A DNA stretch of 64,000 bases from an uncultured Pseudomonadales bacterium. Its GTDB lineage: Bacteria; Patescibacteriota; Microgenomatia; UBA1400; CAYXSR01. The translations under genes and the position numbers were made by a program. Below are positions 26,533 to 40,118 of the stretch, piece after piece (positions within the stretch are counted from its first letter, which is position 1; every line of letters begins with the position of its first letter). The stretch spans positions 141,209-205,208 of the forward strand of contig CAYSEI010000002.1 in the NCBI GenBank assembly GCA_964430265.1, read 5' to 3'. The notes under the pieces were generated by a model. That model made no database searches, was not told the DNA's origin, and saw only the letters and a program-made list of their open reading frames with translations.

Positions 26533-27340
26533 AAAAAAGAATTTTAGTAAATATCTCCAGATATTTAAGATTACTTGGCAGAATATTTTTGTTTACCGCA
26601 TTAATTTTTTTGTTTGGCGACTGCGTTCCCTTATTACATTTCTGGGTATCTATTTTTTTTGGGAGGCGATATATTTTTATAATGATTCTATTGGACCATA
26701 TAAAAGCCGAGAAATGTTAACATATATCCTACTGAGTTCTTTATTACAAAGTTTAGTACTTTCTTCAAGGACTCCCCAAATGGGGAGTGATATAAGCAGG
26801 GGAACTCTGAGCAAACACTTAATGCAGCCTTTTAAATATTTAAGAAAACTATTTTTTATTGATGTTGCTGACAAGGCAGCTAATGTTTTCTTTTTGATTT
26901 TTGAATTAAGCGGAATTTTTCTAATTTTAAAACCACCTTTTATAGTACAAAATAATATCTTAAATTTATTAAGCTTTTTTGTAGCTATGTTTTTAAGCCT
27001 TTTGCTTTTCTATTATATGAGTTTAGTAATTGGTTTATTAACTTTCTGGTATCCGGAAAATCATGGTTGGCCGATGCGATTTCTTTTTAATGTCAGTAAC
27101 CGATTTTTGTCCGGTAGTTATGTGCCTTTAAATGTACTTCCTTCTTTTCTAGGGTTTTTACAATTTTTTCCCTCTGCATTTTTAATTTATTTCCCTTTAC
27201 AAGTATATCTAGGAAAGTTATCACAAGCAGAAATATTTGCAGGATTGGGATTAATGCTGATTTGGATTTTATTACTAAAGTTTTTTAGCAGATATATGTG
27301 GAATAAAGGACTTAAAAATTATACGGCGGCAGGAATATGA
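26522..27340 (+). CDS. ABC-2 family permease (first of two)
   Basis: Polytopic membrane protein coupled to the upstream ATPase; ATG 26522 is chosen inside the longer ORF beginning at 26486. Confidence 0.6.
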   Translation: MKLKKKNFSKYLQIFKITWQNIFVYRINFFVWRLRSLITFLGIYFFWEAIYFYNDSIGPYKSREMLTYILLSSLLQSLVLSSRTPQMGSDISRGTLSKHLMQPFKYLRKLFFIDVADKAANVFFLIFELSGIFLILKPPFIVQNNILNLLSFFVAMFLSLLLFYYMSLVIGLLTFWYPENHGWPMRFLFNVSNRFLSGSYVPLNVLPSFLGFLQFFPSAFLIYFPLQVYLGKLSQAEIFAGLGLMLIWILLLKFFSRYMWNKGLKNYTAAGI

Positions 27341-28110
27341 AAAAATATATTAAAGTTTGGCTAAAAACAGCTTTGCTTTCTTTACAAAACAGTTTGGTAA
27401 GCCCAGGGGCTTCTTTGATGTTTATTCTGGGGAAATTTGTCCGTTTCTTTTTTTATATTATTGCTTTAACAGCAGTTTTTGGAGAAAAAAAGACAGTTGG
27501 AGGATATGATTTGAACACCATAATAAACTTTTATTTAATATACAACTTATTGGATTCTTTTGGACAAATATTTTTCCGAGGTATTTATTGGTTTCGTAAT
27601 AAAGTGGTGTCTGGAAGATTTGACTTGGACTTGGTTAAGCCTGTAAATCCCTTGTTTCAAGCGTTAACGCATCATACAGACATTTTGGATATTCCTTTGT
27701 TTTTTGTAGTAATTGGGATGTTGATGTGGAGAAACTGGGGAATTTCTATTGCAAGTTTTTTTGTTTTTATACTAACAACGATTTTAGGGTTTTTAATTAT
27801 TACAGCGATTCATATTTTAGTTGCATCTTTGGGTGTTTTGACTACTGAAGTTGACCATGCAATTTGGGTATATCGTGATCTCTCAACATTAGCAAGGGTG
27901 CCGGTGGATATTTATAACTCAAAGGTGCGTTTTGTACTGACATATATTCTACCAATTGCAGTAATTTTTACTTTTCCTGCCAAGAGCTTGATGGGAATTT
28001 TGCAACCCCGATATATTATAATAAGTACAATAATTAGTTTTTTATTTTTTACAGGTTCATTAGTTATCTGGAAAAAGTCACTTAGAAGTTATTCAAGTGC
28101 ATCTAGTTAA
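27337..28110 (+). CDS. ABC-2 family permease (second of two)
   Basis: 257 aa polytopic membrane protein, start overlaps the previous stop. Confidence 0.6.
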   Translation: MKKYIKVWLKTALLSLQNSLVSPGASLMFILGKFVRFFFYIIALTAVFGEKKTVGGYDLNTIINFYLIYNLLDSFGQIFFRGIYWFRNKVVSGRFDLDLVKPVNPLFQALTHHTDILDIPLFFVVIGMLMWRNWGISIASFFVFILTTILGFLIITAIHILVASLGVLTTEVDHAIWVYRDLSTLARVPVDIYNSKVRFVLTYILPIAVIFTFPAKSLMGILQPRYIIISTIISFLFFTGSLVIWKKSLRSYSSASS

Positions 28111-28154
28111 AAAAGCTTGAAATTTTTTTAAAAATTTTGTAATTTAAAATATGT

Positions 28155-28853
28155 ATGATCGAATTTAAAAACGTAAGTAAAAACTTTGGTAAAGTAAAAG
28201 CCTTAAAAAAAATTGACTTGCAAATTAAAAAAGGTCAAATTGTTGGACTTCTTGGTCCAAACGGTGCAGGAAAAACAACTGCTATGCGGATCCTTATGGG
28301 TATTCTTAAACCCAGTAAAGGTCAAGTATTTATTAATGGGAAGCTTGTTCAAGAAAACTTAGTGGAAGTTAAGAAAAAAATTGGCTATTTACCCGAAGAC
28401 AATCCGCTTTATAAAGATTTTAAGATTTATGAGTATCTTTTTTTTATTGCACAAGCTAAAGGAATTAATAAGATTGAAGAACAAATAAATAAGGTGGCTA
28501 AAGAAACAAGCATAAGCAGTGAAATTTCACGAAAAATTGATCATCTGTCTAAAGGATATAGACAAAGAGTAGGTCTGGCAGCTGCTTTACTAGGAAATCC
28601 GGAAGTTTTAGTATTGGATGAACCAACAGTGGGATTGGATCCAAACCAAATAGCGGAAATAAGAAATCTTATTAAAGACTTGGCTAAAAAAAAGACTGTG
28701 ATTTTTTCAAGCCATATACTTTCTGAAGTAAAACAAACATGTGAAGAAGTTGTAATTATTCATCAAGGTGAAATTGTTAAATCGGGTAATTTAAAGAAAA
28801 TAACCCAAGAAAGAAGTCTAGAAGAAATTTTTCAATCATTAACAAAATCATGA
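28155..28853 (+). CDS. ABC transporter ATP-binding protein, GldA-like
   Basis: Walker A GPNGAGKTT, LSKGYRQRV signature, VLVLDEPTVGLD. Confidence 0.85.
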   Translation: MIEFKNVSKNFGKVKALKKIDLQIKKGQIVGLLGPNGAGKTTAMRILMGILKPSKGQVFINGKLVQENLVEVKKKIGYLPEDNPLYKDFKIYEYLFFIAQAKGINKIEEQINKVAKETSISSEISRKIDHLSKGYRQRVGLAAALLGNPEVLVLDEPTVGLDPNQIAEIRNLIKDLAKKKTVIFSSHILSEVKQTCEEVVIIHQGEIVKSGNLKKITQERSLEEIFQSLTKS

Positions 28854-29560
28854 AAAAATTTAAAGCATTAGTTCAAAAAGAACTTTATCATTTATTTCAT
28901 TCACCGGTTGCGTGGATATTTGCAGTATTATTTTTACTTTTAAATAATTTCTTTTATTTTAACAATGTTTTTTTAATTGGACAGGCAACAATGCGTCCGT
29001 ATTTTACTAATCTTTCACTAATTCTCTTGTTTTTTGTTGCAGCAGCAGAGATGAGTGCTTTCAGCGAAGAAAAAAAGAGTAAAACTTTAGAAATTCTTTT
29101 AAGCTTGCCTGTTAAAAAATGGCAGATTGCAATATCTAAACTACTTTCTTTTATTATCTTTTTTACTGCTGTTTTATTTTTTACTTTGTCTATCCCCGTA
29201 ACTTTGTTTTTAATTGGTAATCCAGATATTGGACCAATAATATCAGGATATTTAGGAACACTGCTTTTAGCAGGTTTTTATGCGAGTGTTGGAATATACA
29301 TCTCGACTTTTTTCAAAGAACAAGTAATTACTGCATTAATAACCGGTCTGGTTTTATTTACACTTCATATATTGGGTCAGAATTTTATCTTAGAAAGAGT
29401 TTCTTTCCAATTACAATATATACTTTCATTTATAAGTCCCAACACGCACTTTCTTAATTTTGCAAAAGGAGTTATTGATATTGGAGATCTGGTATATTTT
29501 CTTTCCGCCAAGGCAATCCTTGTCTGGCTGACTATTAAAAATATTGGATTTAATAAATAA
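28850..29560 (+). CDS. ABC-2 permease, GldF-like
   Basis: 236 aa, 6 TM, coupled. Confidence 0.7.
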   Translation: MKKFKALVQKELYHLFHSPVAWIFAVLFLLLNNFFYFNNVFLIGQATMRPYFTNLSLILLFFVAAAEMSAFSEEKKSKTLEILLSLPVKKWQIAISKLLSFIIFFTAVLFFTLSIPVTLFLIGNPDIGPIISGYLGTLLLAGFYASVGIYISTFFKEQVITALITGLVLFTLHILGQNFILERVSFQLQYILSFISPNTHFLNFAKGVIDIGDLVYFLSAKAILVWLTIKNIGFNK

Positions 29561-31138
29561 ATGGAAATAAAACAAAAAATAGTTGAATTTATAAAAGAAT
29601 ATAAAACATACTTAATTATTGCAGTTCTGTTTGTAATCAACTTTTTATTGTATAACTATACTTTAAAAATAGATTTAACAGCTAAAGATACATATACGCT
29701 TTCTGCAGTAAGTAAAGAAAAGCTTAAAGAACTAGATGATATTGTTAATATAAAAGTGTATGCTTCAGAAGATCTTCCGGCACAATACTTACAAGTAAAG
29801 CAATATCTGAGAGACGTTTTAAGAGATTATCAATTTATTTCGCAAGGAAAAGTAAGAGTTCAATGGATTAATCCGGGAGAAGACGAAGAATTAATTCAGG
29901 AGGCACAAAGGCTTGGCATCCCCCAATTGCAATTTCAAGATATTCAGCAAGATCAGTTACAGGTAACTAAAGGATTTTTGGGTGTAGCAATTGTTTATGA
30001 AGACCAAGCAGAGGTGATTCCTTTAGTTGAATCTACCCGCGACTTGGAATACCAATTGACTTCTAAAATATATAAACTTACGCGTGATAAAGATCCACGG
30101 ATTGCCTTTACCACAGGACATGGAGAAAGAACAATTAATCCAGTATCTGTTCAAGGAGAACTTGCCACAGAAGAAATACTAGCAAAAAAAGTTTTAGGTG
30201 AGGAATTTGAAGTAAGTGATTTCTCAATTTCCACTGAATCAGCTCAACTTGTTCCGGATAATTATTCCAGTCTAGTTGTGATGGGGCCCACAAAGAAATT
30301 TGATAATAATAGCAAATATGTTCTTGACCAGTTTTTAATGCAAGGTAAACCAATTGCGTTTTTACTTGATTCTTATGAAGTAACTAATAATCTGATACCA
30401 ACAGAAACAAATCACAATCTAAATGAAATGTTAAAAAATTATGGAATCGAAGTCAAAAACAGTTTGGTTTTAGATCAAAGCAATGAAATTGCCAATTTCA
30501 ATAATGGTCAGACAATGACGCTTTCCCCATATCCTTACTGGGTAAAATCAGTAAAACAAAATATGAATGAAGAGTTTCCGGTTACACAGGGGCTGCAAAA
30601 AATTGTTTTTCCCTGGGTTTCTCCTTTAGAATACGATGAGCAAAATCAGGACATTAAAGGATTGGTTTTTTCCTCAAAAAATTCATGGAAAAAAACTGGG
30701 AATATTGATCTTAATCCTTTTCAAAGCTTTATTCCAAAATCAGAAGGAAGTAAACCGTTGGCTGCAGTGCTCGAAGGCAATCTGACCAGTTTTTTTGCAG
30801 ATAAAGATAAGCCGGAAGTTTTTGAGGCGGAAAAAGTAAATTCAACGGAAAACGGTAAAATGGCAGTTGTTGGAGATTCTGATTTTATTAGGGAAGGAAT
30901 TGTTCAGAGGTCTCCACAAAATTTACACTTTTTTGTTAATTTAATTGAGTATTTGACTCTGGGTGAGGGTTTATCAAAAATCAGGGTAAAATCAGAAGAC
31001 ATCCGTCCCTTAATTGAATTATCAAGTCAAAAAAGGCAAGTTTATAAATATGTAAATATGTTAGGAATGCCAATTTTAATAGGCTTGCTGGGGTTTGCTT
31101 ATCTTTACTATCAAAACAAAAAAGAATATAAATTATGA
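29561..31138 (+). CDS. GldG-like ABC-transporter-associated protein (N-terminal and C-terminal TM anchors, large extracytoplasmic domain)
   Basis: 525 aa; architecture and position after GldA/F-like genes. Family assignment is by recollection of GldG-type proteins, not by search. Confidence 0.6.
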   Translation: MEIKQKIVEFIKEYKTYLIIAVLFVINFLLYNYTLKIDLTAKDTYTLSAVSKEKLKELDDIVNIKVYASEDLPAQYLQVKQYLRDVLRDYQFISQGKVRVQWINPGEDEELIQEAQRLGIPQLQFQDIQQDQLQVTKGFLGVAIVYEDQAEVIPLVESTRDLEYQLTSKIYKLTRDKDPRIAFTTGHGERTINPVSVQGELATEEILAKKVLGEEFEVSDFSISTESAQLVPDNYSSLVVMGPTKKFDNNSKYVLDQFLMQGKPIAFLLDSYEVTNNLIPTETNHNLNEMLKNYGIEVKNSLVLDQSNEIANFNNGQTMTLSPYPYWVKSVKQNMNEEFPVTQGLQKIVFPWVSPLEYDEQNQDIKGLVFSSKNSWKKTGNIDLNPFQSFIPKSEGSKPLAAVLEGNLTSFFADKDKPEVFEAEKVNSTENGKMAVVGDSDFIREGIVQRSPQNLHFFVNLIEYLTLGEGLSKIRVKSEDIRPLIELSSQKRQVYKYVNMLGMPILIGLLGFAYLYYQNKKEYKL

Positions 31139-31713
31139 ATAAAAACACAAAAATTCTTCTGATAATTTTAATCATGGTAATCAGCGGGCTTTTTATTTTT
31201 AAAAGAGGATTAGTCCCAAAAGATGTAAATCCCTTAAATCAAGAGAAAGAACTTTTATTTTCTGGTTTAGATATTGATAAAATTGATCAGATTATTATAA
31301 AACAAAATAATGAAGAAACAGTTTTACAAAAAAAAGCAGATGAATGGCAAAGAAAGGAAGCAACCAAATCAGCTGAGAAAAATAAAATAGAGACCCTTTT
31401 ACAAATCGTAAAAGACATGGAAAAACAAGAGCTTGCATCTCAAAATTCAGATAAAAGAGATGTTTATCAGGTAACTGAAAATGCAATACAAGTCATTTTG
31501 AAATCAGGAGACCAAGAAGCAGTAAATTTTTATATTGGCAAAAGAGGTCCGGATTTTCTTTCCACATATGTACGTAAAAAAGATTCTGATAATGTCTGGT
31601 TAATTAAAAAAGCGCTTGAACCTATTTTTGAGCCAGATACTTGGGAGTCAGAAACTTCTTTAGAAAAGCTGGAAGAAAGTACTCCAGCTGCAGAATTGGT
31701 TCCCAACAATTAA
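31135..31713 (+). CDS. Hypothetical membrane-anchored protein (DUF4340-like; commonly follows gldG-like genes)
   Basis: N-terminal TM helix, position; weak family recall. Confidence 0.4.
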   Translation: MNKNTKILLIILIMVISGLFIFKRGLVPKDVNPLNQEKELLFSGLDIDKIDQIIIKQNNEETVLQKKADEWQRKEATKSAEKNKIETLLQIVKDMEKQELASQNSDKRDVYQVTENAIQVILKSGDQEAVNFYIGKRGPDFLSTYVRKKDSDNVWLIKKALEPIFEPDTWESETSLEKLEESTPAAELVPNN

Positions 31714-31746
31714 TAATAGAGGGGAAAATTAAAGAAAGCTCCCTTA

Positions 31747-31776
31747 TTTATATACCCGGAAAATATTGGTATAATA
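31747..31776 (+). promoter_or_regulatory. Candidate sigma70 promoter for the tRNA: TTTATA -35-like, then an extended -10 TGgTATAAT ending 11 nt before the tRNA 5' end
   Basis: TATAAT at 31770-31775 with TG at 31767-31768, read directly. Confidence 0.4.
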
Positions 31777-31786
31777 TTAATGTTTT

Positions 31787-31858
31787 GGGCTAGTAGCTCA
31801 GGGGTAGAGCGCTATTCTTATAAAATAGTGGTCGATAGTTCGAATCTATCCTAGCCCA
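31787..31858 (+). tRNA. tRNA-Ile with anticodon UAU (reads AUA), no encoded CCA
   Basis: Hand fold. Acceptor GGGCTAG/CTAGCCC, D-stem GCTC/GAGC, anticodon stem CTATT/AATAG, loop CUUAUAA (anticodon UAU), T-arm GATAG-TTCGAAT-CTATC, discriminator A. Confidence 0.8.
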
Positions 31859-31906
31859 CAAGAATAATTTATAATCAATTAAAAATTATAAAAATAAAGG
31901 ATTAAA

Positions 31907-32116
31907 ATGCCCAAATATTGTTATCAGTGCAATAAATGCGGAAAAACGTTTAAAATAGAAGCTTCCATTGAAGACAAAGAAAGCTTGGAAGTTTTCTGTC
32001 CTGAATGTGAAAGTACGGAAGTTAGGCAGAAATTTGGCACTTTTTTTAGTTCCGGAAATACGGGGGGATGTGTTTCAGGAAATTGCTCTTCTTGTTCAGG
32101 CTGCGGAGGACACTAA
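31907..32116 (+). CDS. FmdB-family zinc-ribbon protein with a Cys-rich tail
   Basis: 69 aa; CYQCNKCGK..CPECES zinc ribbon and a GGCVSGNCSSCSGCGGH tail. Confidence 0.7.
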   Translation: MPKYCYQCNKCGKTFKIEASIEDKESLEVFCPECESTEVRQKFGTFFSSGNTGGCVSGNCSSCSGCGGH

Positions 32117-32913
32117 TGGTTAAGGTTATAAAAGCTGACGGTACAAAAGAGACATTTTCTAAGGAAAAACTTAATCAATCTATGATAAGGGCCGGAATTG
32201 GTAAAACTATAAGGGGAAAAGTAATTGCAGAAGTTAAAGATAAACTTTATGAAGGAATTTCCACCAAAGAAATCTATGATTTGGTTTCCGAAGAGCTTGA
32301 TCGGCAGGAAAAATACCTTGCTTCAAAATATAGTTTAAAAAAAGCAATTATGCGACTTGGACCAACAGGCTATCCATTTGAAAAATTTATTGCGGGTCTT
32401 TTACAAAAAAAAGGATATAAAACAGAGACAGCGCAAGAATTAATGGGTAAGTGTGTTAGTCATGAAGTTGACGTGATTGCCCAAAAAGATAATAAAAAGT
32501 TTGCTGTTGAATGTAAATACCACAATAAAAGGGGAACAAAAACAGATATTCAAAATGCTTTATACATCTATGCTCGTTATTTAGATTTAAAAGAAGCTCA
32601 GCAGTTAGATGAAATGTGGCTGGTTACCAACACGAAAATGACTTCCAAAGCAGTTGAATACTCAGAGTGCGTAGGATTAAAAGTAATTAGCTGGAATTAC
32701 AGTGGTGAATGGAGTTTGAGTGAACTAGTTGAAAACAGTGATTTGTATCCTATAACTTGTTTGGAAACATTGACGCGTCCAGAAGAAAAAGAACTCTTAA
32801 ATGAAGGAATTGTTTTTTGCCGTGATCTGAAACAGTCACCCAAATCCAAATACTTGCTTCCGAAAAGCAAAAAAGAAGAAGTTTTAAAAGAAATTGAGTT
32901 TCTTACTGAATAA
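32116..32913 (+). CDS. ATP-cone domain protein fused to an Mrr-like PD-(D/E)xK restriction-endonuclease-fold domain
   Basis: N-terminus VKVIKADGTKETFSKEKLNQSMIRAG resembles the NrdR/RNR ATP-cone. The central HEVDVIAQKDNKKFAVECKYH fits the D..E-x-K nuclease core. ATG 32116 overlaps the upstream stop (TAATG); the longer 32068 start in the ORF track is rejected. Confidence 0.6.
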   Translation: MVKVIKADGTKETFSKEKLNQSMIRAGIGKTIRGKVIAEVKDKLYEGISTKEIYDLVSEELDRQEKYLASKYSLKKAIMRLGPTGYPFEKFIAGLLQKKGYKTETAQELMGKCVSHEVDVIAQKDNKKFAVECKYHNKRGTKTDIQNALYIYARYLDLKEAQQLDEMWLVTNTKMTSKAVEYSECVGLKVISWNYSGEWSLSELVENSDLYPITCLETLTRPEEKELLNEGIVFCRDLKQSPKSKYLLPKSKKEEVLKEIEFLTE

Positions 32914-32997
32914 AAACCCGCTTGCATACAAAGATGAGAGTATTATAATAATTTTGTAGAAAAAATTTAGCAAAAAATTCAATAAGAGGAGGTTAAA

Positions 32998-33270
32998 ATG
33001 AAAGTAATTAAAATTGGTGCTGAGTGGTGTCCAGGTTGTCTAGTTATGAAGCCCCGCTGGAAAAAGATTGAAGAAGAGCTGGAATGGTTGGAAACAGAAT
33101 ATCTTGATTATGATCACGATAGGGAAGAAGTTGAAGAATACGGGCTCAAAGAAGGTAAGCTTCCGGTTTTCATCTTTCTAAATAAAGATGGTGAAGAATT
33201 TATGCGTCTCCAAGGAGAACATCCTAAGGATGAATTAATTGAACTGTGTGAAGAAAACAAAGACAAATGA
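32998..33270 (+). CDS. Thioredoxin-family protein (WCPGC active site), cytoplasmic
   Basis: 90 aa, CPGC motif, GGAGG RBS. Confidence 0.8.
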   Translation: MKVIKIGAEWCPGCLVMKPRWKKIEEELEWLETEYLDYDHDREEVEEYGLKEGKLPVFIFLNKDGEEFMRLQGEHPKDELIELCEENKDK

Positions 33271-34427
33271 ATTTAAGGAAATTAGGTCTTTTTGTACTAT
33301 CTATTTTATTGTTATTATTCTCTTTTGTTCCTGTTCTTAATGCTCAAGAACACAAGTGTGAAGATGTTGAAGTGCATTTTTTTTGGGCAAAAGGATGTCC
33401 CCATTGTGCTGAGGAAAAGAAATTTCTAGACAAACTTGAGAAAAAATATCCTGAATTGGATGTTCAAAGATACGAAGTTTCCGGAAATAGGGAAAATCAA
33501 GAGCATATGCAGAAACTGGCAGAAAAAGTGGACGCAAATGTAAGAGGTGTTCCGTTTACAGTAATTGAAGACCAATATTTTATTGGTTTTTATGATGAAG
33601 AAACAACAGGCAAAGAAATTGAAGAAGCAGTCAAATGCCTTTTGCCTCAGGAAAAGCAAGATAAATCAGTAATTCCTAATTCAGTTAGTGTACCCCTTTT
33701 AGGGAAAATTCAGACAAAAGAACTTTCCCTTCCTTTATTCAGTATTGTCTTAGGATTTTTGGACGGGTTTAATCCGTGTGCAATGTGGGTGCTTTTGTTT
33801 CTAATTAGTCTTTTATTGGGAATTGAGAACAAACGTAGACGTTGGATCCTTGGTAGCGTATTTATTGTTGCTTCTTCTTTTGTGTATTTTCTTTTTATGG
33901 TTGCATGGCTGAACTTCTTTTTGTTTTTGGGCTATGTAGTTTGGGTAAGGTATTTGATTGGTGCTTTGGCAGTAGGTGTGGGAATATATAATTTTTATGA
34001 TTTTTATAAAAACAAAGACGGCGGCTGCAAAGTTACAGGGGATGAAAAAAGACGTAAAATATTTTATAAAATTAAAAATATTGTTAAGAAAAATAGTTTA
34101 TTTATAGCAATAATTGGAATAATTCTTCTTGCTTTTGCAGTTAATATGGTAGAGCTTGTTTGTTCCGCAGGTCTTCCGGCAATATTTACCAAGGTTTTAA
34201 CATTAAGCAAACTTCCAATGTGGGAGTATTATTCTTATTTACTTTTATATATTCTATTTTTTATGATTGATGATTTGATCATTTTTTTTACGGCTATGAT
34301 TACCCTCCATACAGTAGGAATTGAATCTAAGTATGCAAGATATTCCAATATTATTGGAGGCCTTTTAATGCTGATTATTGGAATTTTAATGCTCTTTAAG
34401 CCAGAAGTTTTAATGTTTAGTGGTTAA
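33267..34427 (+). CDS. Signal-peptide thioredoxin domain (CPHC) fused to a CcdA/DsbD-beta-like 6-TM thiol-disulfide transporter domain
   Basis: N-terminal signal peptide and WAKGCPHCAEEKKFL thioredoxin motif. The TM domain has one Cys in each of two helices (GFNPCAMWVL, ELVCSAGLPA), as in CcdA/DsbD. Confidence 0.6.
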   Translation: MNLRKLGLFVLSILLLLFSFVPVLNAQEHKCEDVEVHFFWAKGCPHCAEEKKFLDKLEKKYPELDVQRYEVSGNRENQEHMQKLAEKVDANVRGVPFTVIEDQYFIGFYDEETTGKEIEEAVKCLLPQEKQDKSVIPNSVSVPLLGKIQTKELSLPLFSIVLGFLDGFNPCAMWVLLFLISLLLGIENKRRRWILGSVFIVASSFVYFLFMVAWLNFFLFLGYVVWVRYLIGALAVGVGIYNFYDFYKNKDGGCKVTGDEKRRKIFYKIKNIVKKNSLFIAIIGIILLAFAVNMVELVCSAGLPAIFTKVLTLSKLPMWEYYSYLLLYILFFMIDDLIIFFTAMITLHTVGIESKYARYSNIIGGLLMLIIGILMLFKPEVLMFSG

Positions 34428-35520
34428 AATTAAGGCTGGGCCTGCGTTCTAAAGAATAAATATCTTTTACAAATTCTTTTCTTTTGTATTTATAATAAGC
34501 AGCAATTCCAATCATAGCTGCATTATCTCCCAGTAAACGATCAGAATAAGGAATAGTAACTGGCATAGAGTATTTCTTTGCAGTTTGTCTTATCTTGTTT
34601 CTAACGTATAAGTTATTAATAACACCGCCTCCTAGAAGAAGTTTATTAACAGGATATTTATCCATTGCTTTTTCCAGTTTGTTAGTGATTGATTTAGTTA
34701 AAACTTTTTGAAATGAAGCAGAAAAGTCTTTGTAAAATTGTGCATTTTTAGTTTTTTCATCAAATTCTTTTATTTTATACATGCAAGCTGTTTTTAATCC
34801 GGAAAAGGAAAAATTTAGAGACTTATGTTTGCGCATGGGAACAGGAAGCTCAAATCTGTCAGCATTTCCTTCTTCTGCAAGCTTTTCAATTATTGGTCCT
34901 CCAGGATAGCCTAAATCAAGCATTTTAGCAACCTTATCAAAAGCTTCACCAGCTGCATCATCAAGTGTTTCTCCTAATAATTCATATTTTCCGAATTTTT
35001 TCATTAATACAAGCTGTGTATGTCCTCCAGATATTAAAAGGCCAAGAAAAGGAAAGTCATGTTCTTCTGATGAAAGGGGTCCTTTTCCTTTTGAATTCAA
35101 AGCAAAAGAAGAAAGTAGATGCGCTTCCATATGGTTGATTGCTGTTAAAGGCTTTTTTAAATCACAAGAAAGTTGTTTTGCTTTTTCTATTCCAACTTCT
35201 AGTGAAGGAGCAAGTCCGGGTCCACGGGTAACAGCAACAGCATCCAGCTTTTTATATTTAATTTTATCAATGGGCAGATTAAAATGCTTTCTAACGCGGT
35301 TAGCTCTTTTAAGTGCTGTTTCAATAACATCACCTATATGTTCTTTATGCTCTCTTTTTGCAAGGTTAGGAACAACCCCTCCCCATTCTTTATGTACTTC
35401 AATTTGTGAATGAATAATATTGCTTAAAACTCTTCGTGCAAAAGTAATTGCTGCAGCTGTTTCATCGCATGATGTTTCAATAGATAAAATAATAGGATTA
35501 TTATTCATGACTGACCTCAA
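34417..35520 (-). CDS. tsaD: tRNA N6-adenosine threonylcarbamoyltransferase TsaD
   Basis: SIETSCDETAAAI, HMEAHL, GGVINN Kae1/TsaD motifs. Confidence 0.9.
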   Translation of the reverse strand: MRSVMNNNPIILSIETSCDETAAAITFARRVLSNIIHSQIEVHKEWGGVVPNLAKREHKEHIGDVIETALKRANRVRKHFNLPIDKIKYKKLDAVAVTRGPGLAPSLEVGIEKAKQLSCDLKKPLTAINHMEAHLLSSFALNSKGKGPLSSEEHDFPFLGLLISGGHTQLVLMKKFGKYELLGETLDDAAGEAFDKVAKMLDLGYPGGPIIEKLAEEGNADRFELPVPMRKHKSLNFSFSGLKTACMYKIKEFDEKTKNAQFYKDFSASFQKVLTKSITNKLEKAMDKYPVNKLLLGGGVINNLYVRNKIRQTAKKYSMPVTIPYSDRLLGDNAAMIGIAAYYKYKRKEFVKDIYSLERRPSLNFNH

Positions 35521-36595
35521 TTCGTCTATTTTTTTTGTTGTCAGTATATTTTATTGATACCCAAATTATTTTAATATTGGGATTTGATTTATACTGATCA
35601 ACAAGATATTTGGCTTTTTCAATCCATTCAACTGCAATTACATTTCCTGGCTTAAGCATTCTTTTAAAACCGAGGTTTTCCAGTTCTTGAGGGTTTTCCA
35701 TACGCCAAGTGTCTATGTGAAAAAACATTCCACTTTTTTTATTTAAAGAGTAATTGTATTCACGGACTAGTACATAGCTGGGTGACTTGATAGTACTTTT
35801 TATATTTAAAGCTTTGGCAATTCCTTTACAAAACTCGGTTTTTCCTGTGCCCAGCTTTCCTTGCAAAGCAAAAATTAAACATTTATCTTCATTTAAATAT
35901 TTAAAGTGGTCAGTTGTCAGGGAAATAGCAAGATTTTGAGTTTCTTGATTAGACCTACTTGTTGAAATTCTTGAATTTAAATCACTAAAGTTTATTTTCC
36001 CTTCTCTAATAATCTCTAGATTTTCTTTTGTTGTGCTTACGACTGTAGACGGTTTTCTTTTTGGCAGTTCCCCCGCGTCAATAATAAGGTCAATTAATTT
36101 CTTTTTTTCTTGACTTAGACATACTAAAATATCCTTAATTTTATATGGTGTTTTTTTATTGGAGATATTTGCAGAAGTTGCTGTTATTGGCTTCCCAAAT
36201 TTTCTTATTATTTTTCTTGTTAATTCATAATCTGGAATTCTTATTCCTAATGTGCCTTTTTCTGATTCAAGTTTAGAATCAACTTTATGTTTACCCATTG
36301 AAATTACTGTAATAGGACCCGGAAGAAAATTATCATAAAGATTTTCTGCAGTTTTATTAAATTCAACATAATTCTTGGCCATTTTCTTATCCGAAACAGC
36401 AATAGAAATTGGTTTACCCTTGCGAAACCCTTTGTAATTGAGTAATTTTTGTACTGCTTTCGGGTTAGTGGCGTCCACGCCAATTCCATAACAAGTTTCG
36501 GTTGGGTATATAATAACTCCATCTTTATTAAGGACAGCAGCAACTTTTTTTATAATTTCTTTTTCTGGTATTTGCTTAAGTTTTATTGTTTTCAT
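35501..36595 (-). CDS. Fusion of threonylcarbamoyl-AMP synthase TsaC (Sua5/YrdC domain) with P-loop ATPase TsaE (YjeE)
   Basis: N-terminal YrdC fold (IYPTETCYGIGVDA, SIAVSD, LPGPITVIS). The C-terminal part has a GKLGTGKT Walker A and a TsaE-like tail (SPSYVLVREY..FHIDTWR). Confidence 0.75.
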   Translation of the reverse strand: MKTIKLKQIPEKEIIKKVAAVLNKDGVIIYPTETCYGIGVDATNPKAVQKLLNYKGFRKGKPISIAVSDKKMAKNYVEFNKTAENLYDNFLPGPITVISMGKHKVDSKLESEKGTLGIRIPDYELTRKIIRKFGKPITATSANISNKKTPYKIKDILVCLSQEKKKLIDLIIDAGELPKRKPSTVVSTTKENLEIIREGKINFSDLNSRISTSRSNQETQNLAISLTTDHFKYLNEDKCLIFALQGKLGTGKTEFCKGIAKALNIKSTIKSPSYVLVREYNYSLNKKSGMFFHIDTWRMENPQELENLGFKRMLKPGNVIAVEWIEKAKYLVDQYKSNPNIKIIWVSIKYTDNKKNRRIEVSHE

Positions 36596-36645
36596 TCAAT
36601 CATATATTTTATCATTTACTTATGTCAGTGTATAATTGTGAATGT

Positions 36646-37707
36646 ATGTTTAAGAAATTAATTATCAGCTTATTATTTATACTATATTTAGCTAATCCTG
36701 CAATGGCGCAGAAAAATGCTACTTATCAAGGTGTAATAACTAATGTGATTAGTGAAGAAAAGCAAGGAATGACAAATCTTCAAAAAGTTGAAGTTAAAAT
36801 TACAAATGATAAAGCAAATATAGATAAAGTTGAAGCACTGGTACAGATGTCAGGAGCTGTAAAACAGAGAAAGGCAAAAAAAGGGGACGAAGTAATTTTG
36901 GAATCCGGTACAAACTTGGAAGGCAATGTTCAGTATTATGTTGTGGATTTTGTTAGGACTAGCGGTCTTTTTTGGTTGTTTTTGATATTTGTGGCTCTTG
37001 TTTTATCAGTTGCCAGATTTAAAGGATTGACTTCACTGATTGGAATGGCTTTTTCATTTGTAGTCATATTTATGTTAATACTGCCTCTCATAAACCAAGG
37101 AAAAGATCCAGTTTTGGTTTCATTATTAAGTTCACTTTTGATTATCCCAGCCACATTTTACATGTCTCATGGATTTGAAAAAAAGACAACGGTTGCTGTG
37201 ATTGGTACATTAATTTCTTTGGGTATTACCGGGTTACTAGCACAAGTTTTTGTTCAAGCTACAAGGTTGAGTGGTTTTGTTTCGGAAGAAGCAGGCTTTT
37301 TACAGCAAATGAAAGGTGGAGAAATTAATGTAAGAGGACTTTTATTGGCAGGAATAATAATTGGAACCTTGGGAATTTTGGATGACGTATCAATATCTCA
37401 AGCGGGAATAATAGATCAACTCAAGAAAGCAAACAAAAAAATAAAAGACAAAGAACTTTTTAACAGGGCAATGGAAATCGGTCGTGACCACATTGCTTCT
37501 ATGGTTAATACTTTAGTGTTGGTTTATACAGGAGCAGCTTTACCTTTGTTGCTTTTATTTATTAATAATCCGCATCCGTTTATGGAAATAGTTAATTATG
37601 AAATTATTGCCGAGGAAATTGTCAGAACTTTAGTCGGTAGCATTGGTTTAATAACAGCGGTTCCAATTACTACTATACTGGCAATAAAAATGCAAAATGA
37701 AAAATAA
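36646..37707 (+). CDS. YibE/F-family membrane protein
   Basis: Signal peptide, then polytopic membrane protein with the YibE/F-like motif GILDDVSISQAG; start chosen at ATG 36646 (the signal-peptide Met). Confidence 0.65.
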   Translation: MFKKLIISLLFILYLANPAMAQKNATYQGVITNVISEEKQGMTNLQKVEVKITNDKANIDKVEALVQMSGAVKQRKAKKGDEVILESGTNLEGNVQYYVVDFVRTSGLFWLFLIFVALVLSVARFKGLTSLIGMAFSFVVIFMLILPLINQGKDPVLVSLLSSLLIIPATFYMSHGFEKKTTVAVIGTLISLGITGLLAQVFVQATRLSGFVSEEAGFLQQMKGGEINVRGLLLAGIIIGTLGILDDVSISQAGIIDQLKKANKKIKDKELFNRAMEIGRDHIASMVNTLVLVYTGAALPLLLLFINNPHPFMEIVNYEIIAEEIVRTLVGSIGLITAVPITTILAIKMQNEK

Positions 37708-39828: not shown

Positions 39829-39830
39829 AT

Positions 39831-40118
39831 ACTCGGGAAGCCCGTAAGCCAGATTCTGTTTTAAAGTGACATTTGTCTATGCCCTCAAACTCGTTCGATT
39901 CGCGGAGGCATGCTCAGACGAACGCACGGAGGTTGCAGCAGGGGGAATTACCTCTTTTCACCCTCTATCCTTGAAACCAAGGCGAGTTGTTGTCTCTGTG
40001 GCTTATACCGTTTCTACAACAAAGTTGTAAACCACTGCCTTACGGCAGTCACCCTGCCTCCAGCTGTCTGGACTTTCCTCTCTGAACTAAATCAGAGCGT
40101 CACTTCAGCTTCCCGAGT
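39831..40118 (-). ncRNA. rnpB: RNase P RNA, bacterial type A-like, reduced (~290 nt)
   Basis: The reverse complement reads 5' CUCGGGAAGC (P1), a P3 hairpin GCUCUGA/UCAGAG, GGAAAGUCCAGACAGC (P4 5' strand), AGGGUGAAAAGAGGUAA, ACAGAAUCUGGCUUAC (P4 3' strand, with CCAG/CUGG compensatory pairs), GGGCUUCCCGAG (P1 3'). The region is also locally GC-rich. Confidence 0.8.

Follow-up and report, generated by a model that had tools for sequence, protein, structure and literature searches.

The fusion of an ATP-cone to a PD-(D/E)xK nuclease, encoded in the stretch of DNA analysed here (64,000 nucleotides, nt, from an uncultured member of the Candidate Phyla Radiation, CPR, or Patescibacteria; hereafter the window), belongs to a large and uniform protein family that is not new, being already annotated in databases, and that is functionally uncharacterised. 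The gene for this protein of 265 amino acids (aa) follows a small gene for an FmdB-type zinc ribbon and overlaps it by a single nucleotide. The two are most probably independent genes that are neighbours in one CPR/Patescibacteria lineage, and the ribbon is unlikely to be a subunit of the nuclease; the window locus is thus one more member of a widespread family, and the coupling to the zinc ribbon is a matter of local synteny. The overall interpretation that we favour, with moderate confidence, is that of two independent neighbouring genes, one of which encodes a nucleotide-gated chromosomal housekeeping nuclease.

Homologues of the fusion protein form at least 4008 clusters at 90% identity, which span CPR bacteria, Bacteroidota, Chlamydiota and archaea. 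Among 120 listed clusters of this kind, most are annotated with both the ATP-cone (PF03477) and the Mrr_cat (PF04471) families, all with at least one of them and a few also with PF22357, and those to which sources give a name are called “restriction endonuclease”, “ATP-cone domain protein” or “HJR/Mrr/RecB family endonuclease”. An exhaustive search of cluster representatives at 50% identity retrieved 444 clusters with E ≤ 1e-30; in the best 150 of these 444, the cone is kept in all but one (149/150), the median length is 279 aa, and no protein has more than 28 residues before the cone. Counting one genome per species, at least 599 species carry the fusion, including CPR/Patescibacteria (Levybacteria, Microgenomates, Saccharibacteria and others), Bacteroidota, Nitrospinaceae, Chlorobiota and archaea of the Thermoproteota. 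A full-length match occurs in none of the 50,697 phage records searched and in just two of 72,556 plasmids (Pontibacter NZ_CP021236 and Criblamydia NZ_LK031773), both annotated by NCBI as “ATP cone domain-containing protein”. A first reading of the locus from its letters and translated open reading frames (ORFs), the sequence-only reading, had presented the architecture as unusual, which is not borne out by the number of clusters or by the domain annotation and names that already describe it. That reading had also considered that this might prove to be a long-characterised family with a non-nuclease role; in the literature searched, we found no functional study of, or paper on, the ATP-cone::nuclease fusion.

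ATP-cone and nuclease domains

The N-terminal part of the protein matches the ATP-cone family PF03477 (aa 3-74, E 2.1e-10, 41.4 bits against a cut-off of 25.8). An AlphaFold2 model of the protein, built from 28 homologues (mean predicted local distance difference test score, pLDDT, of 91.1; predicted template modelling score, pTM, of 0.86), displays in this region the beta-hairpin (strands at aa 3-5 and 11-13) and the four helices (aa 16-25, 30-42, 50-64 and 68-79) that an ATP-cone demands. In Foldseek searches against the Protein Data Bank (PDB), the model superposes on the ATP-cone of Escherichia coli NrdR over 81 residues, with a root-mean-square deviation (rmsd) of 2.1 A and 26% identity, and the ATP-cones of NrdB, NrdA and NrdD are returned as well. 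Profile and model thus agree that the downstream ORF opens with an ATP-cone, as had been recognised from the letters. When aligned with E. coli NrdR, the putative nucleotide contacts V4, K6, E12 and K18 stand opposite V51, K53, E59 and K65, contacts that have been validated in NrdR; in Streptomyces NrdR, substitution of the aligned contact residues lowered nucleotide binding and changed oligomerisation (PMC12176259). Across an alignment of 231 sequences, composed of the window protein, one representative from each of the best 150 clusters at 50% identity and the proteins of the 80 species loci, K6 is kept in 228, K18 in 226 and E12 in 175, and position 4 is V or I.

Fold of the cone and aligned contact residues are therefore common to NrdR and the window protein, but their outputs differ: NrdR carries a DNA-binding ribbon fused to the cone, whereas the window protein carries a nuclease and no fused ribbon, and it reaches the NrdR model TIGR00244 through its cone only (19.4 against a cut-off of 124.65). 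Moreover, an nrd context is expected for NrdR and the window locus has no nrd association, in agreement with the first reading of the pair: no NrdR or second ATP-cone protein was detected across the 64-kb window, and no ribonucleotide reductase (RNR) domain was found by Pfam in the ten flanking ORFs (27337-37707), nrd genes without an ATP-cone elsewhere in the window or genome not being examined. In RNRs (NrdA, NrdD and Leeuwenhoekiella NrdB), the cone is the same kind of small N-terminal allosteric domain of an enzyme, but the enzyme regulated is the reductase itself instead of a nuclease. By analogy with these systems, the window protein is likely NrdR-like in the sense of nucleotide-driven switching.

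The cone is followed by a nuclease core that matches Mrr_cat PF04471 (aa 85-185, E 3.8e-10, 40.3 bits against a cut-off of 21) and, in a phmmer search, the Archaeoglobus fulgidus protein AF1548 (PDB 1Y88; aa 91-246, E 6.7e-34), the only solved relative detectable by sequence. The same structure is the top PDB match of the model in Foldseek (E 1.5e-15, target TM-score 0.83, rmsd 2.7 A, 34% identity), followed by Can2, Card1, Cdn1, NucS (2VLD) and AspBHI. The match to 1Y88 assigns the core to the restriction-endonuclease-like alpha/beta fold. The Mrr-like D..E-x-K core proposed earlier, a motif of Mg-dependent nucleases, could be located at D119 and E132-x-K134 and refined to the AF1548 type; these residues, together with E89, E117, R154 and D157, are invariant in all 231 sequences, and E89, D119 and E132-x-K134 are likewise invariant in the alignment of 28 sequences. 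The profile searches and structure prediction agree overall, since the three Pfam families proposed for the two genes (PF03477, PF04471 and, for the ribbon, PF09723) all score above their cut-offs and the nuclease model matches 1Y88. AF1548, a protein of 199 aa that lacks the ATP-cone, has in common with the window protein the nuclease core, the D...ExK motif and a C-terminal helical domain. This last domain gives a weak match to AF1548-like_C (PF22357, aa 211-239), is covered by the sequence and structure matches to 1Y88 up to aa 246, contains an invariant P212 and is predicted as helices at high pLDDT; we presume it to be nucleic-acid-binding. Both the cone and the nuclease domain are under strong purifying selection, which speaks against a dead fold and in favour of an active nuclease whose nucleotide sensor is functional.

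Four further residues of the nuclease domain, C113, H116, H136 and C185, are conserved in 214-225 of the 231 sequences; C113, H136 and C185 also occur in AF1548, where H116 is replaced by Gln. Together these residues could make up a metal or redox site close to the active centre. Beside this Cys/His set, we note that a thioredoxin gene lies directly downstream of the nuclease gene in the window lineage.

Genomic contexts and possible function

To describe the protein as a candidate nucleotide-sensing nuclease, as the sequence-only reading did, appears fair in view of catalytic residues without exception in the family and of the retained NrdR contact residues. In the mechanism that we favour, adenine nucleotides (ATP, dATP or their di- or monophosphates) would bind the cone, and the bound nucleotide would alter the oligomeric state of the protein or the packing of the cone against the nuclease, thereby gating cleavage. 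We propose such gating because of the established behaviour of the ATP-cones of RNRs and NrdR, whose oligomers and interfaces change when a nucleotide binds (PMC9110341, PMC12176259). As for its sign, a low-confidence guess would be that the enzyme is restrained in nucleotide-replete cells and active upon depletion or a changed dATP/ATP ratio. Its role would then lie in nucleic-acid turnover, salvage or repair incision tied to the nucleotide pool, and not in restriction or defence.

The genes found next to other members of the family offer some indications about this role. We surveyed neighbourhoods from the nuclease side, in 80 homologous loci (40-53% identity) with some 4 kb of sequence to either side. 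In Bacteroidota, Kapaibacteria and the Pontibacter and Criblamydia (Chlamydiota) plasmids, the nuclease gene is the first of a cassette, followed by genes for an MBL/beta-CASP/RMMBL hydrolase, a protein of about 500 aa of the thymidine-phosphorylase family and a ribose-phosphate pyrophosphokinase. Stops and starts often overlap within the cassette (by 1-4 nt in Criblamydia), which is flanked by genes for universal stress proteins, D-2-hydroxyacid dehydrogenase, P2-type ATPase, phosphoketolase, glycogen phosphorylase and acetate kinase. In Bradyrhizobium diazoefficiens, microoxia induces the last three genes of the cassette (bll3115-3117; PMC6515984). CPR loci of the Levybacteria type instead combine a DUF2079 membrane protein gene, the nuclease gene and a mostly convergent DinB gene, sometimes with LexA; a DinB-type polymerase gene is near the nuclease gene in 23 of the 80 loci and adjacent to it in 14. 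Elsewhere among the CPR loci, the nuclease gene stands next to a gene for a heavy-metal P-type ATPase, MnmA or a histidine kinase. Taken together, these contexts point to a part in the turnover of nucleic acids and nucleotides when energy is limiting, or in repair. A cross-phylum link to “CopA” was discarded as being in part an artefact of single-linkage clustering, the CPR genes encoding heavy-metal P1B ATPases and those of Bacteroidota P2-type cation ATPases.

Several points weigh against a nucleotide-gated housekeeping nuclease. No biochemical data for any family member were found in the literature searched, and AF1548 comes from a structural-genomics entry described as of unknown function, so that it supplies a fold and no function. 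Position 7 of the cone is Ala (in 150 of the 231 sequences) where many cones, and usually those of RNRs, have the Arg of a “K-R” pair; this is not disqualifying for an ATP-cone, because E. coli NrdR likewise lacks the Arg and has Ser there (K-S), but the ligand could differ from ATP or dATP. Which way the regulation runs, and whether DNA or RNA is cut, can only be conjectured. Neighbourhoods vary by lineage, each association may be mere lineage synteny, and the salvage partners are all absent from the window, where we looked for them, as for DinB, and found none; for this very reason, the cassette role can be extended to the CPR gene only by inference.

A dedicated DNA-repair endonuclease, active in base-excision incision or on stalled or recombination intermediates and licensed by its cone to cut when dNTPs are available, would account for part of these contexts, but we consider it unlikely. 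In the relative designated L081, a same-strand 3-methyladenine DNA glycosylase gene (Pur_DNA_glyco) downstream overlaps the nuclease gene and a UDG gene is nearby; in L088, the gene of a ComM-like Mg-chelatase/MCM ATPase lies upstream and overlaps the start of the nuclease gene with its stop. To these can be added the DinB-type genes, the occasional LexA, the structural neighbour NucS/EndoMS and a weak Hjc match. However, most of the DinB genes lie on the opposite strand, and they are confined to one syntenic CPR block with the DUF2079 gene, the glycosylase and ComM cases are single loci, the Bacteroidota and Chlamydiota contexts favour nucleotide salvage and energy stress, and the window has no repair neighbour. 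Since the nuclease gene overlaps quite different genes in L088 and L081, tight coupling to a neighbour is evidently common and the partner variable.

The catalytic domain and the name “restriction endonuclease” given to homologues evoke an anti-phage function, whether as a restriction nuclease of the Mrr/type IV kind or as an abortive-infection effector sensing disturbance of the (d)NTP pool. PADLOC returns fold-level matches to the nuclease domain of ZorD (E 8e-10) and to CARF-PD-(D/E)xK effectors, and the ligand-gated Can2, Card1 and Cdn1 indeed share with the window protein the design of a small-ligand sensor fused to a PD-(D/E)xK nuclease. Yet the PADLOC matches cover only the generic nuclease fold, and Can2, Card1 and Cdn1 are distant structural neighbours (Foldseek E about 6e-4 to 2e-2) whose similarity is confined to that fold, whose sensor is a CARF domain and not an ATP-cone, and whose CRISPR or cyclase context is missing here. 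With Mrr and type IV endonucleases the window protein has the PF04471 family in common, but neither an N-terminal DNA-recognition domain nor a defence-island or methyltransferase context; by Pfam, no methyltransferase or other defence gene occurs among the ten flanking ORFs. The family is, in addition, virtually absent from phages and plasmids, stably syntenic with housekeeping genes, free of compositional anomaly and of uniform architecture, with 40-50% identity across phyla and invariant motifs, unlike fast-diversifying defence genes. A defence role consequently appears improbable, and the gene is not a component of a restriction-modification system, the locus having no cognate methyltransferase, defence island or mobility signal.

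The neighbouring zinc-ribbon gene

The gene upstream of the nuclease gene (ORF A) is a real gene and encodes, as first described, a 69-aa zinc ribbon of the FmdB type, with matches to Zn_ribbon_8 PF09723 (E 5.6e-10, 39.5 bits against a cut-off of 34.4) and to the NCBIfam model TIGR02605 (FmdB family; E 7.8e-11, 41.9 against 31.3). It has two CxxC pairs, at aa 5-8 (also 8-11) and 31-34, and a C-terminal Cys-rich tail with C55, C60, C63, C66 and H69. Orthologues at 96% and 56% identity retain C8, C11, C31, C34 and the tail; in the more distant one (L081), C5 is replaced by Ser and the tail pattern reads C-x4-C-x2-C-x2-C-x2-H. Because the tail is conserved at this distance, it suggests a second metal-binding cluster and not mere low complexity. 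The sequence-only reading was right about the presence of this tail but not in calling it “extra”: a Cys/Gly/Ser-rich tail is presumably usual in the FmdB family, whose model TIGR02605 is described under the name CxxC_CxxC_SSSS. With two CxxC pairs and a low-complexity Cys/Gly/Ser tail, ORF A is an ordinary member of that family.

The junction between the two genes had been read exactly, both in its coordinates and in its TAATG overlap, where the stop of the ribbon gene and the start of the nuclease gene have one A in common; a GGAGG, Shine-Dalgarno-like, lies inside the ribbon gene 6 nt upstream of the nuclease ATG. Although ORF B begins at 32068 in the mechanical ORF list, the nuclease starts at the ATG at 32116, because all its homologues begin with M-[VI]-x-V-[IV]-K; a database protein 95% identical to the ORF B product also has 265 aa. 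The two genes are probably co-transcribed and translationally coupled in the window. A scan for promoters and terminators around the gene pair yielded sites no more numerous than in shuffled sequence.

This arrangement raised the possibility that the ribbon acts as a DNA-targeting or regulatory subunit of the nuclease, that is, the architecture of NrdR distributed over two polypeptides in a lineage-specific two-component system. In favour of such a link, and against the independence of the two genes, are the TAATG overlap with a Shine-Dalgarno inside the ribbon gene, found with the same 1-nt overlap in the 95%-identical relative L084, and the adjacency kept in L081, where nuclease (58% identity) and ribbon (56%) have diverged to a similar degree; these features leave room for a connection restricted to this lineage. 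Beyond these two relatives, the association disappears. Among the six closer relatives examined, the ribbon adjoins the nuclease gene only in L084 and L081 and in none of the four at 52-54% identity, in which the upstream neighbours are a Y1 transposase gene, the ComM-like ATPase gene already mentioned and unannotated ORFs. In the 80 surveyed loci, we found no FmdB-like ORF within about 4 kb (phmmer, E ≤ 10), only noise (E > 4) with tblastn for the ribbon, and no small CxxC...CxxC ORF upstream on the same strand by regular expression; a fused ribbon is absent from all 150 best cluster representatives, and the ribbon ORF does not match the NrdR model at E ≤ 1. Comparison of neighbourhoods also accounts for the two positive cases: both share with the window the whole succession of ABC-2 transporter genes, ABC_transp_aux, DUF4340, tRNA-Ile(UAU), ribbon, nuclease, thioredoxin and glutaredoxin-like membrane protein, so that their adjacency is explained by synteny. 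In L081, moreover, the overlap gives way to a 26-nt spacer that contains TGTTATAAT, a -10-like element, directly before the nuclease ATG, and the translational coupling is therefore not conserved. Considering also that no nrd genes lie nearby, the earlier idea of a conserved pair with the ribbon as an NrdR ribbon in trans does not hold, and the two-component system is very unlikely; we would allow at best a slender chance that, in the window lineage, the gated nuclease has acquired the FmdB ribbon as a subunit acting in trans.

NrdR inspires one last alternative, a catalytically dead nuclease fold serving as a nucleotide-responsive DNA-binding regulator, which would agree with the repressor being the closest characterised partner of the cone and with a weak Pfam match to the inactive family NA-iREase1 (E 0.05), but which is extremely improbable given that E89, D119, E132 and K134, as well as E117, R154 and D157, never vary, as is not expected of an inactivated fold.

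The surrounding locus and the significance of the family

The positions of the features discussed are collected in Table 1. The pair indeed sits right after a tRNA gene and beside redox genes, as had been noted: a tRNA-Ile (anticodon UAU), a context feature outside the protein pair, precedes the zinc-ribbon gene by 47 nt, and genes for thioredoxin and a glutaredoxin-like membrane protein follow downstream. The UAU anticodon is uncommon in bacteria, in which AUA is usually decoded by a lysidine-modified CAU tRNA; in L081, the tRNA-Ile(UAU) occupies the same position. The GC content around the locus (0.34-0.355) is close to that of the whole window (0.339), and a horizontally acquired island beside the tRNA gene was ruled out for lack of a compositional signal. 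The Pfam matches in the ten flanking ORFs include ABC-2 transporter, DUF4340, thioredoxin, glutaredoxin-like, TsaD, Sua5-TsaE and YibE/F domains.

Table 1. Features of the window locus and of related loci (window positions unless another locus is named).
Feature	Position	Strand	Details
Promoter-like TTTATA-17-TATAAT	31747-31775	+	directly before tRNA-Ile; consensus promoter scan
tRNA-Ile (anticodon UAU)	31787-31859	+	ARAGORN; Rfam tRNA 71.2 bits
FmdB-type zinc-ribbon gene (ORF A)	31907-32116	+	69 aa
Cys-rich ribbon tail	32068-32116	+	aa 55-69
Gene junction	32105-32118	+	GGAGG 32105-32109; TAA 32114-32116; ATG 32116-32118; reads TAATG
ATP-cone::nuclease gene (ORF B)	32116-32913	+	265 aa; start ATG 32116, stop codon at end
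ATP-cone domain	32122-32337	+	aa 3-74 of 265; PF03477
AF1548/Mrr-type PD-(D/E)xK core	32368-32700	+	aa ~85-195; PF04471, PDB 1Y88
Motif residue E89	32380-32382	+	
Motif residue D119	32470-32472	+	
Motif residues E132-C-K134	32509-32517	+	
Further core residues		+	E117, R154, D157; TNTK motif aa 171-174
C113	32452-32454	+	
H116	32461-32463	+	
H136	32521-32523	+	
C185	32668-32670	+	
C-terminal helical domain and stop codon	32701-32913	+	aa ~196-265, AF1548-like_C
Thioredoxin, then 386-aa protein	32998-34427	+	thioredoxin 90 aa; 4-nt overlap
TsaD	34417-35520	-	
Sua5/YrdC(TsaC-like)-TsaE fusion ORF	35501-36595	-	
RNase P RNA, bacterial class A	39829-40116	-	105.4 against gathering score 100
tRNA-Ile(UAU) in L081	4261-4333		
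Nuclease and overlapping glycosylase gene in L081	5001-6222		glycosylase gene downstream
ComM-like gene and nuclease in L088	181-2498		ComM-like gene upstream
Cassette, L091	1972-6597	co-directional	Pontibacter NZ_CP021236
Cassette, L092	6001-10608	co-directional	Criblamydia NZ_LK031773
Cassette, L037, L051, L053, L060, L071, L072, L075, L077		co-directional	

Some neighbouring genes deserve mention in their own right. The 386-aa protein encoded after thioredoxin has a glutaredoxin/thioredoxin-like N-terminus, and its C-terminal region is hydrophobic and, to judge by the sequence, apparently multi-pass; the order of the two genes is kept in L081 and L084. Farther downstream, the TsaD gene is adjacent to the Sua5/YrdC(TsaC-like)-TsaE fusion ORF, and the genes for t6A tRNA modification are therefore clustered and partly fused. 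The RNase P RNA has 288 nt against the 367 positions of the model and is therefore a reduced one.

As to the family as a whole, we tentatively suggest that it might consist of ATP/dATP-gated endonucleases acting as a nucleotide-pool checkpoint, which would couple nucleic-acid breakdown, salvage or repair incision to adenylate or dNTP status. Studies of the ATP-cone, within the literature searched, are confined to ribonucleotide reductases and NrdR. Here, a sensor with intact contact residues is joined to an invariant nuclease site in thousands of genomes of bacteria and archaea, the tiny genomes of CPR bacteria included. If our suggestion is true, ATP-cone control would be shown for the first time in an enzyme that has no part in ribonucleotide reduction, and such control would matter especially in CPR bacteria, which live on nucleotides that they scavenge, and for the energy-stress cassette found in Bacteroidota and Chlamydiota. 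If the gating were demonstrated, ATP-cone allostery would extend to nucleic-acid cleavage and would offer a handle on how cells limited in energy or nucleotides control a nuclease directed at themselves.

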